Shown here: piece after piece, positions 50,857 to 63,110 of the stretch
How positions within the stretch are numbered: the stretch's first letter is position 1
Layout of the letters: each line of letters opens with the position of its first letter
Translations under genes and position numbers: made by a program
Notes under the pieces: model-generated
Told to the model about the DNA's origin: nothing
Database searches by the model: none
The model's input: only the letters and a program-made list of their open reading frames with translations
DNA from: Escherichia coli
Lineage (GTDB): Bacteria; Pseudomonadota; Gammaproteobacteria; Enterobacterales; Enterobacteriaceae
Direction: 5' to 3' (one strand)
Assembly: GCF_009931435.1 (NCBI RefSeq)
Contig: NZ_CP043414.1
DNA length: 64,000 bases

Positions 50857-51813
50857 ATGAACCCGATTGCAGTTACCCTACTCACCGGTTTTTTAGGCGC
50901 AGGCAAAACCACCCTGCTGCGCCATATTCTTAATGAACAGCACGGCTACAAGATTGCCGTGATTGAAAACGAATTCGGCGAAGTCTCCGTTGATGATCAA
51001 CTGATTGGCGACCGCGCCACGCAGATCAAAACGCTGACCAACGGCTGCATCTGTTGTTCGCGCTCCAACGAGCTGGAGGACGCGCTACTCGACCTGCTGG
51101 ATAATCTCGACAAGGGCAATATTCAGTTCGATCGTCTGGTCATTGAATGCACCGGCATGGCCGATCCCGGCCCGATTATTCAGACCTTTTTCTCCCATGA
51201 GATTTTATGCCAGCGTTACCTGCTGGACGGCGTGATTGCGCTGGTGGATGCGGTACATGCCGATGAGCAGATGAACCAGTTCACCATCGCCCAGTCACAG
51301 GTTGGCTACGCCGACCGCATTCTGCTGACCAAAACCGACGTCGCAGGCGAAGCAGAAAAACTGCGTGAACGCCTGGCACGCATCAACGCCCGCGCACCGG
51401 TCTACACCGTCACCCACGGCGACATCGATCTGGGCCTGCTGTTCAACACCAACGGTTTTATGCTGGAAGAAAACGTCGTCAGCACCAAACCGCGTTTCCA
51501 CTTTATCGCGGATAAACAAAACGATATTTCGTCGATTGTGGTAGAACTGGATTACCCGGTAGATATCAGCGAAGTTTCCCGCGTGATGGAAAACCTGCTG
51601 CTGGAGTCGGCGGATAAACTGCTGCGTTACAAAGGGATGCTATGGATTGACGGCGAACCAAATCGCCTGCTGTTCCAGGGCGTCCAGCGCCTCTACAGCG
51701 CCGACTGGGACCGCCCGTGGGGCGATGAAAAACCGCATAGCACGATGGTGTTTATCGGGATTCAGCTGCCGGAGGAAGAGATTCGGGCTGCGTTTGCGGG
51801 GTTGAGGAAGTAA
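50857..51813 (+). CDS. yjiA: COG0523/CobW-family metal-binding GTPase YjiA
   Basis: Start placed at MNPIAVTLLTGFLGAGKTTLLRHIL... (318 aa); GCICCS metal-binding motif. Confidence 0.9.
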   Translation: MNPIAVTLLTGFLGAGKTTLLRHILNEQHGYKIAVIENEFGEVSVDDQLIGDRATQIKTLTNGCICCSRSNELEDALLDLLDNLDKGNIQFDRLVIECTGMADPGPIIQTFFSHEILCQRYLLDGVIALVDAVHADEQMNQFTIAQSQVGYADRILLTKTDVAGEAEKLRERLARINARAPVYTVTHGDIDLGLLFNTNGFMLEENVVSTKPRFHFIADKQNDISSIVVELDYPVDISEVSRVMENLLLESADKLLRYKGMLWIDGEPNRLLFQGVQRLYSADWDRPWGDEKPHSTMVFIGIQLPEEEIRAAFAGLRK

Positions 51814-51824
51814 AATTTCACATT

Positions 51825-51867
51825 TTTCTTAAGCCGGAAGATATATATACCCCACCGGCTTAAGAAA
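51825..51867. repeat. Inverted repeat at the convergent yjiA / accessory-operon junction
   Basis: TTTCTTAAGCCGG ... CCGGCTTAAGAAA (about 13-bp arms, 17-nt AT-rich spacer); no flanking U-tract on either strand. Confidence 0.4.
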
Positions 51868-51878
51868 GTGCAATTCTC

Positions 51879-52628
51879 TTATGAAACATCACGAAATACA
51901 CAGGTAAGTTCTTTAGGACTTGCTTTCCATATATGGTCAAAGCCACTCGACAGCATGACTTCTATTTTTCCTTCCGGACTTTCAATTAGTAAATAGCGAT
52001 CATGGCAGTTTGTATATTTGGGATTTGTAGTGATTTGCACACTCCATTCAGGATGGATACAATGAACAAAATTACTATTTATTTTACTTCCGTTTTGGAC
52101 TGCAGCGACACCTACTGCGATTTCTGAAAATTCAATAACAAGCTCTTTTCTAGGTAGTACGGAATGAAATAAGCTGCATGTATTCTCCCAATTCTGTGCA
52201 AAGTAATTATCGCATATAATTACTTTTTTTGCATTGCAACATAGCATTTCCAGATACTTTTTTAAATATATTCTATTATCTGTAGGGCTTAATGTAACGG
52301 TAACTTGATTATTAACCATACCTTTTTTATAATGTACAAAGGGAAGTGATAAATTATCATTCTCAGTAAGGATTATTTTCAACAACGATTTAGATGCTAA
52401 AGTAACAAGATCATCATCACTTTCAGGCTGACTTGCTAACATAGATAAATATTGTCGATATTCTAACTCCGGCATCTTCAATCCTAAATTTCTTGCCTCA
52501 ATCCATTGCCTTTTGTTAGTTAAATAAGGTAGTACTAGTTTTTTATGTAATCTCTTCACCTTATTCTTATCATCCATATTTTCATATGCAACTAATAAAG
52601 ATGTATCAAGAACCATTTGATAAGACAT
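51879..52628 (-). CDS. Hypothetical protein, no recognisable domain; third gene of the accessory operon (gene C)
   Basis: 249-aa ORF; ATG 4 nt after the ATPase stop with a GAGGT Shine-Dalgarno; AT-rich coding sequence. Confidence 0.6.
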   Translation of the reverse strand: MSYQMVLDTSLLVAYENMDDKNKVKRLHKKLVLPYLTNKRQWIEARNLGLKMPELEYRQYLSMLASQPESDDDLVTLASKSLLKIILTENDNLSLPFVHYKKGMVNNQVTVTLSPTDNRIYLKKYLEMLCCNAKKVIICDNYFAQNWENTCSLFHSVLPRKELVIEFSEIAVGVAAVQNGSKINSNFVHCIHPEWSVQITTNPKYTNCHDRYLLIESPEGKIEVMLSSGFDHIWKASPKELTCVFRDVS

Positions 52629-52632
52629 TTCT

Positions 52633-53682
52633 TTACCTCATCTTCATCAAATCATCTAAGGTTGCATCAAAAAAACCTAAAGGGAATCCCGTAACATTCT
52701 CTTGCAGATCGGTAAATTTCCCACCTTCATTAACTCTCATCGAGATAAAATCTTTATCCACATCAGGTTTATAATGTACAGAAATATCCTCAGAAGTTAT
52801 AACATCTTCATAAACCAAATACGCAAGTTTATTGATTAAATGTTCACAATGCGTTTCTACAATAATCTGGATACCCTTACTTGCTACAAATGCTAAAAAA
52901 ATTGCCAAATGAGACTGCGCTTTCGGATGCAATTGAATTTCGGGATTTTCTAGCAAAATAAGATCGCCTTTTTTTGCCATCAAACAAATAATCAAAACCT
53001 TTGCAATATAACTCATCCCAGCCCCAAGATTAAGAGGAGAAACATTTCCTTCAAGCTCTTTTAAGGTAAAAGCGACCTTAATCTGGTCACCAACTTTTTC
53101 AGTAACTAATTCAGACGTCGTTCCTGTAATCAGTTTCAACCAATAAGATAATTGATATGCAAGTGTTGTAGATTCGTGAACTTTCACCAGATATTCAGGT
53201 ACTGGCAAATGTTTCATTTTATCAAATGTTGAAAACAAGAATTCTCCTGCAACACCTACTCGACGTTCTGCGGTGGGCACAAATTCTTGTGCCCCCAAGC
53301 GGTTGGCATTCAGATAGAGCAACTCAGGTTCACTACCAGGCACTCTTGGCTCGTATTGATATCCCAGACGACTATCAATTTCGATATTTTCTGAGTTGAG
53401 CGTTAACGAATGAGAATTTTTTTCTGTATCCTGGACTGTTATAACAATAGATTTTGCGTTATTTTTTTTATTTCTAATAACAGGAAAATCAGCTAGAAAT
53501 CGGATAACTTCTTCCATACTATACTGATTAACAGAAGCGCTATTTTTAATTAGTAACATCAATGCCTGAATAACGCTGGATTTACCAGAAGAGTTAGTTC
53601 CAGTTAAAATGGTCAGTGGTGATAACACCAGACTTGTTGAGCCTAAACTTTTAAATCCTTGAATGTTAATATTTGTAAGCAT
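52633..53682 (-). CDS. ABC-type/AAA_21-like ATPase, second gene of the accessory operon (gene B)
   Basis: 349 aa; N-terminal MLTNINIQGFKSLGS... with Walker A GTNSSGKSS; C-terminal Walker B and H-loop (DLILLENPEIQLHP...IIVETHCEHL); start overlaps the upstream gene by 17 nt. Confidence 0.75.
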   Translation of the reverse strand: MLTNINIQGFKSLGSTSLVLSPLTILTGTNSSGKSSVIQALMLLIKNSASVNQYSMEEVIRFLADFPVIRNKKNNAKSIVITVQDTEKNSHSLTLNSENIEIDSRLGYQYEPRVPGSEPELLYLNANRLGAQEFVPTAERRVGVAGEFLFSTFDKMKHLPVPEYLVKVHESTTLAYQLSYWLKLITGTTSELVTEKVGDQIKVAFTLKELEGNVSPLNLGAGMSYIAKVLIICLMAKKGDLILLENPEIQLHPKAQSHLAIFLAFVASKGIQIIVETHCEHLINKLAYLVYEDVITSEDISVHYKPDVDKDFISMRVNEGGKFTDLQENVTGFPLGFFDATLDDLMKMR

Positions 53683-54796
53683 TTTTAATCCTTTCCATTA
53701 TTTCCTTCGCAAAATCAAAACGCATATTTACATATTGTGTTGTATCAATTGCACCAGAAAAAATACCAATCTCATCAAAATTATACTTGTATTGTTCAAT
53801 AAGCTGTTTTAATTCAATATTTTTTGATAAAAATTCAAAACTTATCTGACTGAATACCATAACTAACACTTCGAATAATCCCATATTCACTGGTCGCCTT
53901 TTAGCACCTGATTTTGTTGAAAATCTAAATGCTTCTGAACCCAACGCTTTATAGACATTAGTCATACCAGTTATACAAGCATCTTCAACTTCTTCCAGTA
54001 ACTCATCATCAGCTTTTGTATTAATGAATTTCATCGCAGATGCTAAAAAAGCATCAATATCAGACCTAAATTCAACACCTGGCATTTGATTTGTTACAAG
54101 CAAATAAAATCCTACGAACCGCAAAACCAGATATCTGTCTCGCATACGCTCAGATTTTACGCCATTACCTGTTGCAAGCCTGAAAGACTCGTGTTCAGCG
54201 AGATCCTTAATTAACTTTGTGGCCTTGCCTTGATAAAGAGCATGCCGCATTTCCTGTTTATTTAGATTAATACCACTTCGATTTACACGCTCAAAAATAT
54301 TAAATTTCACATATTCAGGTGTTGGGGGTTGAATCACATAAGAATGTAACTGGCAATCTTCAAGCTTTGCTTGTAATAATGGAGGAATATCAGAAAATTT
54401 TTTTCCTCTCAAGTCAGGCAACATAGATAAATCAGTTAAAGAAAATTCATTGTTAACATAGCGTTTCAATGCAGATATTCGTTGTTTGCCATCAATGATT
54501 TGCCTGACACCATTTTCATCCTCAAAAAGATAAATTAATGGAATAGGAATCCCCATTAAAATAGATTCAATTAATTCTGACTGGTGTTTTCTATCCCAGA
54601 CAAGTTTACGCTGAAAATCTGGAGCAAGAACCAGTTGCCCACGAGCTTCGCGACGGAGTAATTCGAAAACACTGGATTGCTCTTTTGCAATTCGAACCTC
54701 AGTATCTGTCCCCATTTGATGCGGATGAGATGTTAACTCAAGCTCTTCTTGATCTTCGAGTTCAATGCTGTCGTTTTCTACATCCGCATTACTCAT
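53666..54796 (-). CDS. DUF262 (ParB/sulfiredoxin-like NTPase, GmrS-type) domain protein, first gene of the accessory operon (gene A)
   Basis: 376 aa; acidic N-terminal tail then DUF262 motifs PDFQRKLVWDRKHQSELIESILMGIPIPLIYLF...IIDGKQRISAL and FNIFERVNRSGINLNKQEM; no DUF1524/HNH motif found. Confidence 0.75.
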   Translation of the reverse strand: MSNADVENDSIELEDQEELELTSHPHQMGTDTEVRIAKEQSSVFELLRREARGQLVLAPDFQRKLVWDRKHQSELIESILMGIPIPLIYLFEDENGVRQIIDGKQRISALKRYVNNEFSLTDLSMLPDLRGKKFSDIPPLLQAKLEDCQLHSYVIQPPTPEYVKFNIFERVNRSGINLNKQEMRHALYQGKATKLIKDLAEHESFRLATGNGVKSERMRDRYLVLRFVGFYLLVTNQMPGVEFRSDIDAFLASAMKFINTKADDELLEEVEDACITGMTNVYKALGSEAFRFSTKSGAKRRPVNMGLFEVLVMVFSQISFEFLSKNIELKQLIEQYKYNFDEIGIFSGAIDTTQYVNMRFDFAKEIMERIKNAYKY

Positions 54797-55036
54797 GGTA
54801 AAATTACCTTTAAAAATTTATCGAATTATTTATTCATAAAAATAGGGCGCTGAATCAAAATTTCAGCCCCTTAATCAACATGAATTATACCCTAACTTCC
54901 TTCTTGACTGCGACCTTCACTGCACCATTATGCGAGTTATCTCCAGAACATAATGCTCTCATACCGCCCTAAGTCATAGCCAGGCTATTGATTTTATGTA
55001 CAATCAGAATCGTCCTGATAAAAGCGAGAATACCCC

Positions 55037-57469
55037 ATGGCGGAACTGAACCTAAGTAACCTGACGGAAGCAGACATCATTACCAAATGCGTTATGCCAG
55101 CCATTCTCAATGCAGGCTGGGACAACACAACGCAAATCAGACAGGAGGTCAAACTCCGGGACGGTAAAGTCATCGTACGTGGTAAAGTTGCGGCACGCAG
55201 AACGGTAAAATCTGCTGACATCGTGCTGTATCACAAACCAGGCATTCCCTTAGCCGTGATTGAAGCAAAAGCCAACAAACATGAAATTGGCAAAGGGATG
55301 CAACAGGGCATTGAATATGCGCGCCTGCTGGACGTTCCTTTTGTTTTTGCCACCAACGGGGATGGCTTTATCTTCCGCGATGCCACCGCAGCCGAAGGTG
55401 AATGCCTTGAAAAGCAAATAACGCTGGATGACTTCCCCTCCCCCGCTGAACTCTGGCAAAAATTCTGCCTCTGGAAAGGATACACACAAGCTCAGCTTCC
55501 GGTGATTACTCAGGACTATTACGACGATGGCAGCGGTAAATCGCCACGTTATTACCAGCTTCAGGCAATCAACAAAACCATTGAAGCCGTCTCCAACGGG
55601 CAAAACCGCGTTCTGTTGGTCATGGCGACCGGAACAGGGAAAACCTATACCGCATTCCAGATCATCTGGCGCCTGTGGAAATCAAAAAATAAAAAACGCA
55701 TTCTGTTCCTTGCCGATCGCAACATTCTGGTCGACCAAACCAAAAATAATGATTTCCAGCCATTTGGTACGGCAATGACCAAAGTCAGCGGACGCACCAT
55801 TGATCCCGCTTATGAAATTCACCTCGCGCTCTATCAGGCTATAACTGGCCCGGAGGAAGACCAAAAAGCGTTTAAACAAGTCGCACCAGATTTCTTCGAT
55901 CTGATAGTCATCGACGAATGCCATCGCGGCAGCGCATCCGAAGACAGCGCCTGGCGAGAGATCCTTGATTATTTCAGTTCCGCCACCCAAATTGGCTTAA
56001 CCGCCACGCCAAAAGAGACGCATGAAGTCTCCAGCACGGATTACTTCGGCGATCCGGTTTACGTCTACTCGCTAAAAGAAGGGATCGAAGACGGCTTCCT
56101 CGCCCCTTATAAAGTTGTCCGTGTTGATATTGATGTTGATCTGCAAGGCTGGCGCCCAACCAAAGGGCAAACTGACTTAAACGGCGAAGTGATCGACGAT
56201 CGTATCTATAACCAGAAAGATTTCGATCGCACGATGGTAATCGACGAACGCACAGAACTGGTTGCCAGAACCATTACCGACTACCTCAAGCGCACCAATC
56301 CGATGGATAAAACCATCGTCTTCTGTAACGACATCGATCATGCAGAACGTATGCGCCGCGCCCTGGTTAATCTCAACTCGGAGCAGGTGAAAAAGAACGA
56401 CAAATACGTCATGAAAATCACCGGCGATGATGAAATTGGCAAAGCTCAGTTGGATAACTTCATCAACCCGAAAAAACCGTACCCGGTTATCGCGACCACT
56501 TCAGAGCTGATGACCACCGGTGTGGATGCTAAAACCTGCAAACTGGTAGTACTGGACCAGAACATCCAGTCGATGACCAAATTCAAGCAGATTATCGGTC
56601 GTGGTACACGCATCGACGAACGTTACGGCAAACTCTGGTTTACCATCCTCGACTTTAAAAAAGCCACCGAACTGTTTGCCGATGAGCGTTTCGATGGCAT
56701 TCCCGAAAAAGTCATGGATACCACACCAGAGGATATCACCGATCCAGAATCTGATTTTGAAGAGAAACTCGAAGAAATCAGCGAACATGACGACGAACAG
56801 GTAACGGGCGTTGATGAACCGCCTGCGCCACCATACCAGGTTACCGATACCGATGATGTCGGCCCACTTCCGGAAGAAGACGAGAAGAAAATCCGCAAGT
56901 TTCACGTCAACGGTGTCGCGGTGGGCGTTATTGCGCAGCGTGTTCAGTATTACGATGCCGACGGTAAACTGGTTACCGAATCTTTTAAAGATTACACCCG
57001 CAAAACACTGCTCAAAGAATATGCCTCGCTGGATGACTTTACCCGCAAGTGGCAGGACGCCGATCGCAAAGAAGCGATCATTCACGAGCTGGAGCAACAG
57101 GGGATCATCTGGGAAGTACTGGCAGAAGAAGTCGGTAAAGATCTCGACCCGTTCGACATGCTTTGCCACGTAGTGTATGGTCAGCCGCCGTTAACCCGCA
57201 AAGAGCGCGCCGAGAACGTGCGCAAGCGGAACTACTTCACAAAATACTCTGAAGCAGCGCAAGCCGTGCTCGATAATCTGCTGGATAAATACGCCGATGC
57301 GGGCGTACAGGAGATCGAAAGTATTCAGGTGCTGAAACTTAAACCATTCGACAGCATGGGCACTTTACCGGAGATTATTAAAACCGGATTTGGCGACCGT
57401 AACGGGTATAATCAGGCGCTCAGCGAGCTGGAAAACGAAATCTACCAATTACCGCCCCGCTCTGCTTAA
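55037..57469 (+). CDS. hsdR: Type I restriction enzyme R subunit HsdR (short, Type IB-like form)
   Basis: 810 aa; N-terminal PD-(D/E)xK nuclease region and SF2 helicase motifs [26 protein letters not shown]. Confidence 0.9.
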
Positions 57470-60914: not shown

Positions 60915-61000
60915 ATGTGCGCCAACACACCCGCACCGCTCATCACAATCCCTATTTCACGAGAATAGTAATCATGACTGACACGCATTCTATTGCACAA
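60915..61000 (-). ncRNA. symR: Expected position of the SymR antisense sRNA (boundaries not determinable from sequence)
   Basis: Placed only by analogy: in K-12 SymR is encoded antisense to the symE 5' UTR and start codon; no independent sequence evidence. Confidence 0.25.
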
Positions 61001-61315
61001 CCGTTCGAAGCAGAAGTCTCCCCGGCAAATAACCGTCAATTAACCGTGAGTTATGCGAGCCGCTACCCGGATTACAGCCGTATTCCCGCCATCACTCTGA
61101 AAGGTCAGTGGCTGGAAACCGCCGGTTTTACCACCGGCACGGCGGTAGATGTCAAAGTGATGGAAGGCTGTATTGTCCTCACCGCCCAACCACCCGCCGC
61201 CGAGGAGAGCGAACTGATGCAGTCACTGCGCCAGGTGTGCAAACTGTCAGCGCGTAAACAGAAGCAGGTGCAGGAGTTTATTGGGGTGATTGCCGGTAAA
61301 CAGAAAGTCGCCTGA
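60974..61315 (+). CDS. symE: SOS-induced toxin-like protein SymE (AbrB/SpoVT fold)
   Basis: 113 aa [48 protein letters not shown]...; track ORF starts at an upstream Met (60917). Confidence 0.85.
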
Positions 61316-61361: not shown

Positions 61362-63110
61362 TTATACCAACGCGCTCTCCATCTGTTTTTCAAATGCCTG
61401 ACGGATTAATCCCATAATGTAAGGAAGTTGTGCGAGGTCGCTGAAACCAATTTCTACATCGCCATTGCCCCAGCGCCCAACATTTGTCACATCTTTGGCA
61501 ATACCTTTCGGATCGACCAGTTCATGAAACTGCATATTAAGCGACAATCGCAGTCGGCTTTTTTGCGGCACAACATCAACAAAATTCGTTTCCGCTTTAA
61601 ACGCAATATAGAGCTTCAATACTTCCTGCGTGATCCCTGCGTCCAGGCGCAAAACTTCATCGCTAAGATGATCGAATAACACCCGGCTATGCGAACCATC
61701 AGCAAGAAAAGGATAATCACTCAGGCTGTAACTGGTTTTGTTTTCCGGCTGCCCCCGATAAACAGCTAAAACCTCTTCAGGAAGAGAAGGCGCTTGCCAG
61801 ACCTGAACCGCGAGATCGGCCAGACGATCGGCTCGGGCGTGAATGGCAGCTTCATCCCATTTTTCGCACTGTCCAAGACCGATATTCAAATAAAGCGGGC
61901 TATGCTTAAAGCCGTCTTCAATATCGCGTTTTTCCGCGAAAGGTCTGTCACTGTAGCGGGAGTTATAGCGCGTTAAAGTGAGATTCCCCAACGTATGCAA
62001 CAATTCTTTATGAATACGCTGCCAGTCGCTTCCCAGCTCTTCGCGCCATTTAGCCGACAAATTTTCGTTCTGCGGCATAATGTGCTCAATCGTAAACTCT
62101 TCCACGCGCTCTCTGCGTTTATTGTTTTCCAGTCGTCGTAACCAGTAACTGCGACTGCGGAAGTTATAGAGATCGCGAACTTTTAATTCCCGTTTAAATT
62201 CATCATCGTTGGGGAAACGACGATATGAAGGTAGATTCAGAAAATGTACCTGAATACTTTCCAGATAATTTTCTTTATTAATAACTTTATAAAAAGTGGC
62301 AAACGTCTTGTTAAGAGAATTTGTTGGAATCGCACATACTGCACGGCGGAAAACATAAGATTCAATTAAACGAATTATGCTCAGGAAATCTTCACGAGAC
62401 AAAACGCCATTTTTATAGTCATGATAAAGCGCCAGTAAGAAAGGATACGCCACATCGACTTTTAACTCGCGCAAATCCTGAAAAGCCGTAGCAAGCGATT
62501 TGTCACTTTCTTTTCCCAATGCCATTGCACAGTAATACTCCGCGTAGATGTGAATATCTTCAACCAGCCGATCTACGCCTTTTTCAGCAACACTCTGGCT
62601 ACGGGCATGGAGTTTAAAAGCCTCATAGACTTCATCTGTCCGAGGGATCTCCCCCGTTTTTACCGTCAGATAATGACGCATAAAACTGTCAAAATATTCG
62701 CTGTAACCTTGCTGACCAAAGGCGACTTCCATGGGTCGCCAGTGATCTTCATACAACCGGGTTTGATGCTCTGGTTCGAGACCCATCAGAATAAAATTGC
62801 GCACCAGATCGGCCTGACTTAACGCCTTACCGGTGGAGTTCATACTTTCAAAAATCAGTTGCGGATTATCCTGACCACGATTAAGCGCCACATCGACAAT
62901 TAATAACTTTGCTAACCCACGACATAAGGGGATCAAGTCATCACCGAGTTTGGCAATTTGTTCATCAAAGAAAGTAAAGTTTTCCATTATTCGATGGGAA
63001 TAGTTTTCTGGCATTGGTCTTTGTTTTATTAACGCCAGCAAACTGTCTTTATCAGTCTCGGTAAGCAGTAATTTAAATCCTTTCTCGCCGGACTCATAAG
63101 GATTGAGCAA
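61362..63110 (-). CDS. GmrSD-family (DUF262 C-terminal part + DUF1524 His-Me finger) protein lacking the N-terminal DGQQR core; possibly the yjiT-equivalent locus
   Basis: 582-aa ORF with a TTG start right after an in-frame stop; DUF262 distal motif IFESMNSTGKALSQADLVRNFILMG; DUF1524 motif EHIMPQNENLSAKW...LHTLGNLTLTRYNSRYSD; only 64 bp separate it from yjiS. Confidence 0.7.
   Translation of the reverse strand: MLNPYESGEKGFKLLLTETDKDSLLALIKQRPMPENYSHRIMENFTFFDEQIAKLGDDLIPLCRGLAKLLIVDVALNRGQDNPQLIFESMNSTGKALSQADLVRNFILMGLEPEHQTRLYEDHWRPMEVAFGQQGYSEYFDSFMRHYLTVKTGEIPRTDEVYEAFKLHARSQSVAEKGVDRLVEDIHIYAEYYCAMALGKESDKSLATAFQDLRELKVDVAYPFLLALYHDYKNGVLSREDFLSIIRLIESYVFRRAVCAIPTNSLNKTFATFYKVINKENYLESIQVHFLNLPSYRRFPNDDEFKRELKVRDLYNFRSRSYWLRRLENNKRRERVEEFTIEHIMPQNENLSAKWREELGSDWQRIHKELLHTLGNLTLTRYNSRYSDRPFAEKRDIEDGFKHSPLYLNIGLGQCEKWDEAAIHARADRLADLAVQVWQAPSLPEEVLAVYRGQPENKTSYSLSDYPFLADGSHSRVLFDHLSDEVLRLDAGITQEVLKLYIAFKAETNFVDVVPQKSRLRLSLNMQFHELVDPKGIAKDVTNVGRWGNGDVEIGFSDLAQLPYIMGLIRQAFEKQMESALV

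Follow-up and report, generated by a model that had tools for sequence, protein, structure and literature searches.

The window analyzed here, a 64,000-nucleotide stretch of Escherichia coli DNA, contains a low-GC variable cassette inserted between yjiA and hsdR. The cassette carries three genes, nsnA, nsnB, and nsnC (genes A, B, and C), which form a tight minus-strand operon with nsnA first and nsnC starting 4 nt after nsnB (Table 1). nsnA is translationally coupled to nsnB, the gene for an ABC ATPase, and to nsnC. The yjiA–hsdR slot lies in what is called the immigration control region of E. coli; hsdRMS, a type I restriction-modification system of the EcoAI family, adjoins the cassette. The same slot is occupied by mrr in K-12, and in another E. 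coli strain it holds a single 550-aa GmrSD-type gene. The flanking btsT is 95–99% identical to E. coli sequences, and the cassette was very probably acquired horizontally.

Table 1. Features of the nsnABC cassette, in coordinates of the window.
Feature	Coordinates	Strand	Details
Low-GC variable cassette, yjiA-hsdR insertion	51814..54962	.	Operon GC 0.347 vs 0.50-0.56 in the flanks
nsnC (gene C)	51879..52628	-	249 aa; N-terminal inactive PIN-like domain and C-terminal PLD-like domain (PB-PLD1 class)
nsnB (gene B)	52633..53682	-	349 aa; ABC-type ATPase; 17-nt overlap with nsnA
nsnA (gene A)	53666..54796	-	376 aa; lacks a nuclease domain; ParB-DUF262 plus a C-terminal helical domain
All-helical C-terminal domain (residues 191-376, nine helices)	53669..54226	-	Probable counterpart of NsnA-C ('ParBDB' in Li et al.)
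ParB/Srx-like DUF262 domain (residues 32-190), predicted NTP-binding	54227..54703	-	
DUF262 motif III FERVN (residues 168-172)	54281..54295	-	
DUF262 motif II DGKQR (residues 102-106), predicted phosphate-binding centre	54479..54493	-	
DUF262 motif I QRKLVW (residues 62-67)	54596..54613	-	
Acidic disordered N-terminal segment (residues 1-31)	54704..54796	-	Motif IELEDQEELEL, then HPHQMGTD

The cassette is rare, because the operon is absent from all 5426 complete RefSeq E. coli genomes in a megablast search at coverage of at least 80%; blastn likewise returned no match to nsnA in the complete RefSeq E. coli genomes. Since no such genome has the operon, a Logan contig and other genera supplied the annotated context. 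In Shewanella and on Klebsiella plasmids, too, genes of similar size occur in the order A-B-C, and the NsnA relative on a Klebsiella plasmid is 69.8% identical and adjoins an AAA ATPase. Scanning positions 51700–55100 for promoters and terminators gave counts not above those of shuffled sequence (12 vs 12.5 and 2 vs 1.9, respectively).

We consider nsnA a real gene, and not a chance open reading frame, because 917 homologues of its product were retrieved at E ≤ 1e-5 and an identical protein is present on 258 public contigs, under the record name 'MULTISPECIES: DUF262 domain-containing protein [Escherichia]'. The single Pfam match is to GmrSD_N/DUF262 (PF03235; residues 45–188, E 4.4e-24); no second family is matched even at E ≤ 10, and NCBIfam has no model for NsnA or NsnC. 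Conservation counts and the AlphaFold2 model of NsnA (pLDDT 83.6, pTM 0.79) are based on 69 homologues, down to 43% identity. The DUF262 signatures read from the sequence in an earlier note are all present, as FQRKLVWD in motif I (61–68), DGKQRISAL in motif II (102–110), and FERVNRSGINLNKQEM in motif III (168–183). Across the 69 homologues, Q62 and W67 of motif I, D102, G103, and R106 of motif II, and F168, R170, and N172 of motif III are invariant, and R63 and Q105 are at least 90% conserved. The solved structures closest to the model are BrxU, SspE, and DndI. At the sequence level, NsnA matches no PDB chain at E ≤ 1, and the family profile finds BrxU alone (E 0.049), in an alignment spanning motifs I–III.

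All three genes are recognized by PADLOC profiles of the Menshen defence system. Gene A matches the NsnA profile (PDLC03877) at 2e-110 and 367.6 bits, with residues 8–371 aligned to positions 21–383 of 385; gene B matches NsnB over its full length (1.5e-78, 263 bits), and gene C matches NsnC end to end (2.2e-71, 238.3 bits). The runner-up for gene A, PD-T4-2_A, scores 109 bits (6.4e-32), and the GmrSD-like profiles (SspE, HEC-05/06) cover just the first 40–60 residues of the core. Gene A thus very probably encodes NsnA, the DUF262 component of a Type I Menshen anti-phage system (nsnA-nsnB-nsnC), in which, judging from the family literature, the nuclease would act in trans via an ATPase relay. 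This nuclease-less DUF262 protein belongs to an already known system, and the standard profiles recognize its operon. The earlier note did not recognize the trio as a named, known system.

The comparison with described Menshen systems extends to architecture. Gene A has the ParB-DUF262 and helical C-terminal arrangement of Menshen NsnA (Millman et al., 2022; Li et al., 2025, PMC12065111), as well as the short non-globular N-terminus that defines Type I (PMC12065111). The operon partners are also alike, with EN/GxG variants in NsnB and an inPIN and HDR-motif PLD-like domain in NsnC, and we see no architectural difference between the E. coli operon and Type I Menshen with a PB-PLD1 NsnC. The validated Menshen of S. 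silvestris, which protects against T2, T4, T6, and Fado, differs in its effector, a BECR RNase in place of PB-PLD1 (PMC12065111). In the literature, it is only for the S. silvestris system that phage resistance dependent on the DUF262 gene is known. Millman et al. do not use the name Menshen in their bioRxiv preprint, and the literature searched yielded no experimental mechanism paper on Menshen NsnA, NsnB, or NsnC and no biochemistry of any NsnA.

Membership in Menshen leaves more than one role to consider for the DUF262 subunit. NsnA might be a DndB-like brake, either a DNA/ATP-binding repressor or an inhibitor that silences NsnB and NsnC until titrated by phage DNA. DndB too combines a DUF262 domain with a helical domain, the acidic tail of NsnA could be an inhibitory element, and gene A stands first and overlaps gene B in the manner of antitoxin–toxin layouts. 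However, according to a review citing Millman et al., 2022 (PMC10952713), Menshen loses its defence, and does not become toxic, when the DUF262 gene is mutated or deleted, and no helix-turn-helix (HTH) is detected in NsnA, by Pfam or in the AlphaFold2 model. We regard a brake as unlikely and favor a sensor acting through NsnB and NsnC.

The partners have features expected of the published family members. NsnB encodes a Walker A motif, GTNSSGKS (28–35), a variant Walker B, LILLEN (241–246), with EN instead of DE, and a variant signature, LGAG (219–222), with GxG instead of SGG; the EN and GxG deviations are those reported for NsnB (Li et al., 2025, PMC12065111). Its Pfam matches are AAA_15, AAA_21, SMC_N, and, weakly, DUF3696 at the C-terminus. 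NsnC has no Pfam match. Its model (pLDDT 94.4) reproduces the published inPIN and PB-PLD1 structural matches; D140 and H209-D210-R211 are invariant, and there are no conserved PIN-type acidic residues. The best structural match for NsnC is the MIT_C domain of MITD1, a membrane-binding PLD fold that is not known to be catalytic.

These features of NsnC bear on a second alternative, in which NsnA itself damages DNA, in the manner of Osa and other ParB/Srx-fold proteins that reportedly unite ATPase and DNase activity, with NsnB and NsnC in accessory or regulatory roles. The ParB-like fold of NsnA is confirmed, Osa is cited as a ParB-superfamily NTPase by Li et al. (PMC12065111), and no NsnA–NsnB contact is predicted, all of which would fit. 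Yet it is NsnC that has a conserved PLD-type catalytic constellation, in its invariant H209, D210, and R211, and NsnC that swaps among about 15 toxin/nuclease domains across Menshen, a pattern typical of the effector position, whereas NsnA has no conserved metal-binding acidic cluster outside its NTP motifs. A DNA-damaging NsnA is therefore very improbable, and NsnC remains the preferred effector.

The C-terminal half of NsnA contains no recognizable nuclease. In residues 191–376 of the AlphaFold2 model, DSSP assigns nine helices, no beta hairpin, and no beta-beta-alpha unit. The single histidine of this region, H202, is not conserved among the 69 homologues; the conserved polar residues are D220, R226, D248, N259, R291, N304, and E309, with no conserved histidine. 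The PADLOC NsnA profile reaches residue 371 and thus spans the C-terminal domain. Pfam matched GmrSD_N in 69/69 homologues, any family over the C-terminal domain in 0/69, and GmrSD_C or any HNH family in 0/69, even at E ≤ 0.1. As a positive control, the 550-aa GmrSD-type protein that another E. coli strain encodes in this slot matched both GmrSD_N (4.7e-41) and GmrSD_C (2.1e-27). When the NsnA-clade profile was compared by hhalign with a 43-sequence GmrSD-clade profile, motifs I–II alone were aligned (89% probability), and the C-terminal half was not linked to the GmrSD middle domain; against a GmrSD remnant in the 64-kb window, the NsnA profile aligned over motif III alone (0.3% probability). 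Neither comparison gave a DUF1524 signal. Moreover, among representatives of the family (the best 150 of 2231 clusters at 50% identity, E ≤ 1e-30), the match runs to the protein C-terminus in all 150 and extra length is always N-terminal; therefore, no nuclease is fused to the domain.

A nuclease is absent from NsnA. The earlier note had seen no His-Me finger motif in the last ~200 residues, and the all-helical model, the lack of a GmrSD_C or HNH match, and the lack of a conserved histidine agree with it; the cryptic HNH/DUF1524 fold that it had named in advance as the outcome counting against its reading was looked for in the C-terminal half and is absent. Its further claim, that gene A is not a stand-alone GmrSD-type nuclease, holds on the homologue counts, the all-helical C-terminal half, and the score of the positive control. 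The rival view is that the C-terminal half of gene A conceals a cryptic or divergent His-Me/DUF1524 nuclease and makes it an ordinary GmrSD-type type IV restriction enzyme. It draws on the DUF262 domain common to GmrSD enzymes, on BrxU and SspE as best structural matches, and on the presence of a true GmrSD-type gene at this position in other E. coli strains. This view is largely refuted and almost certainly wrong, given no GmrSD_C/HNH match at E ≤ 10 in gene A or at E ≤ 0.1 in its homologues (control 2.1e-27), an all-helix region 191–376 whose sole histidine is not conserved, an hhalign signal limited to motifs I–II, and a protein about 170–200 aa shorter than GmrSD enzymes with an end point that its relatives share. 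For the helical half, a published structure comparison points to the ParBDB domain of GmrSD-M, SspE-M, and DndB-C (Li et al., 2025, PMC12065111), and it is from this comparison only that a DNA-binding role is suggested for the C-terminal half of NsnA.

NsnA can thus be set beside several DUF262 and ParB systems. GmrSD, BrxU, and SspE, which are type IV restriction or PT-sensing enzymes, have the N-terminal DUF262 domain in common with it, but they carry the DUF1524 His-Me nuclease in the same chain (or in an adjacent GmrD), whereas the NsnA operon encodes its effector as a separate protein, to which an ABC ATPase provides the link. Subunit A of PD-T4-2 (Vassallo et al., 2022) is a paralogous DUF262 protein without DUF1524, so called because this second-best PADLOC match spans the full length (NsnA residues 12–366 against profile positions 9–360 of 363). 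According to a review, the PD-T4-2 partner is a HEPN protein (PF18735; PMC10952713), whereas NsnA is partnered by an ABC ATPase and a PLD-like protein; the cassette has no HEPN gene, and its neighbouring genes match NsnB and NsnC. Canonical ParB, Noc, and KorB, CTP-dependent DNA clamps by which a partner ATPase is regulated, have the ParB/Srx N-domain fold in common with NsnA (Foldseek probability 0.8–0.9, E about 1e-2). Unlike canonical ParB, which is characterized by an HTH, parS logic, a GERRxR motif, and a C-terminal dimerisation domain and is partnered by a ParA-type ATPase, NsnA has no HTH and no parS logic, carries DGxQR as its nucleotide motif, and is partnered by an ABC-type ATPase; no ParB Pfam family is matched in NsnA. 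The analogy of a DNA-bound ParB-like protein that modulates a partner ATPase was drawn by Li et al. (PMC12065111).

To the domain content, operon coupling, and nuclease absence established here, the family literature adds a probable mechanism. The earlier note had proposed a sensor or NTPase with B or C as the downstream effector; this coincides with the bioinformatic model of Li et al. (2025, PMC12065111), in which NsnA is the sensor, NsnB the ABC-ATPase transducer, and NsnC the effector, and the operon matches all three PADLOC Menshen models. NsnA would bind invading DNA via its DUF262 and helical domains, and would bind or hydrolyse NTP at the DGKQR centre, the role of motif II being as described by the same authors (Li et al., 2025, PMC12065111). 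It would then activate an NsnB ATPase tetramer, predicted to be GajA-like. NsnB, which may hold NsnC through the C-terminal DUF3696 helix, would switch on or release the PLD-like effector, and the putative target of NsnC is nucleic acid, which it would degrade. The nuclease that resides in the same chain in GmrSD, BrxU, and SspE would here be supplied in trans via the ATPase relay. The A-to-B step is the weak point of the relay model: in the hands of Li et al., AlphaFold 3 predicted neither self-association of NsnA nor its binding to NsnB or NsnC, and the authors offer no hypothesis for NsnA-to-NsnB signalling (PMC12065111).

A feature of NsnA that may be relevant to this step lies ahead of the DUF262 core. 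The acidic N-terminus described in the earlier note is real, with DVENDSIELEDQEELELT at residues 5–22, but it extends over residues 1–31 and not over ~45; the first beta strand of the model lies at 35–42 (pLDDT >85), and residues 32–45 are already inside the folded DUF262 domain. The 31 residues contain 10 D/E and 0 K/R, for a net charge of −10, and are modeled at pLDDT 34–54. The segment is net negative in 69/69 homologues (−2 to −11), which have in common the motif ΦEΦ(E/D)xQxxL(E/D), with L19 at least 90% conserved. Across 112 diverse representatives, the mean net charge of the 31-residue stretch preceding the DUF262 core is −6.7 vs −0.4 in control windows, and a net charge of −4 or lower is found in 87% of these stretches vs 14% of windows elsewhere in those proteins. 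Proteins that carry additional N-terminal domains (Type II) show the acidic bias to the same degree, and in them the segment sits between the sensor domain and the core. The strict 9-residue version of the motif occurs in only 4% of the diverse representatives; a looser one, Φ[E/D]G[E/D][E/D]xΦ (Φ, hydrophobic), is 6-fold enriched and lies ~51 residues ahead of motif I in 23% of representatives. Because the strict 9-mer is rare, the family-wide feature is the charge together with the looser motif, and not a strict sequence. In BrxU and SspE, by contrast, the DUF262 core begins within about 10–18 residues of the N-terminus, without an acidic leader.

The segment could serve to dock NsnA on NsnB, could inhibit NsnA itself by mimicking DNA, or could simply be a linker. 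We hold it possible, though doubtful, that it is functional and not a passive loop, either as a peptide that couples NsnA to NsnB or as a mimic that occupies the DNA-binding groove of NsnA until phage DNA displaces it. ParB contacts ParA via a disordered N-terminal peptide, which occupies the position that the acidic tail has in NsnA. By analogy, the coupling-peptide reading could draw on the likeness in position to this ParA-stimulating peptide, although the ParB peptide is basic and that of NsnA acidic. The main text of Li et al. calls the region a loop, and the words 'acidic' and 'negatively' are both missing from it (PMC12065111). A family-wide acidic pre-core segment seems to be new to the literature, and we offer it as a modest lead.

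As annotation, the result is routine: a Menshen operon in a well-known E. coli defence hotspot, with a domain logic published in 2025. Even so, the operon is a Type I Menshen, with a PLD-like effector, that is native to E. coli, the host of the T-even phages against which this defence reportedly acts; it is therefore convenient for testing a mechanism so far worked out by bioinformatics only. Strains differ in whether the slot holds a single-chain DUF262-DUF1524 enzyme or the trans-acting DUF262 system described here, so that the two designs can be compared in a natural setting. The acidic pre-core segment, in turn, is a testable candidate for how NsnA signals to NsnB.

The anti-phage operon Menshen (nsnA-nsnB-nsnC; 51879-54796) seems to form a cassette that is both rare and mobile. 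Searches with megablast and blastn recovered the operon in none of 5426 complete RefSeq E. coli genomes, and a protein identical to NsnA, the DUF262 protein, is found on 258 contigs, one of them 5.2 Mb in length. Relatives are carried by 71 plasmids, 41 of which are conjugative. Upstream of nsnA lie a perfect TATAAT hexamer, paired with a weak -35 element, and a hairpin that resembles a terminator, with a T-run after it (see table). Because the scan for promoters and terminators around nsnA, taken whole, returned sites no more commonly than in shuffled sequence, these two signals may be chance occurrences.

Features discussed in the text, with positions in the window
Feature	Position	Strand	Remarks
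TATAAT hexamer	54884-54889	-	~88 nt upstream of nsnA ATG, within cassette
Terminator-like hairpin	54849-54867	-	between TATAAT and nsnA start codon
GmrSD-type gene, 5'-truncated, 582-aa ORF	61362-63110	-	remnant region extends upstream to ~63360
SymE-type toxin ORF	60917-61315	+	between hsdS and GmrSD remnant
NsnC HDRYLLIE...SSGF	51996-52004	-	NsnC residues 209-230

Near yjiS, a second DUF262 gene seems to represent a type IV enzyme that is decaying at the mcrBC position. Its ORF, of the GmrSD type (DUF262 and DUF1524 in a single chain), still encodes DUF262 motif III (FESMN), the DUF1524 motif (EHIMPQN) and a DUF5655-like tail, and is missing the first ~103–115 residues, those that bear motifs I and II; the PADLOC Orf5 profile is matched from position 104 of 543 onward. 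In-frame stop codons lie upstream of the ORF, followed by yjiS. The corresponding site is ~377 bp longer in other E. coli genomes, in one of which the gene is also broken and is annotated as a pseudogene fragment. A SymE-type toxin ORF between hsdS and the GmrSD remnant is as expected for the region; its counterpart in a near-identical locus is called as a 113-aa protein with PF08845.

In NsnC, the proposed effector, the tabulated sequence can be read as a degenerate form of the 'HKD' motif of PLD proteins, H-x-(K>R)-x4-(D>E)...G-S, and residues H209, D210, R211, E223 and S227-F230 are invariant. Since the structure that the NsnC model matches best is MIT_C of MITD1, a domain that binds membranes, the target of NsnC may be a lipid or membrane.
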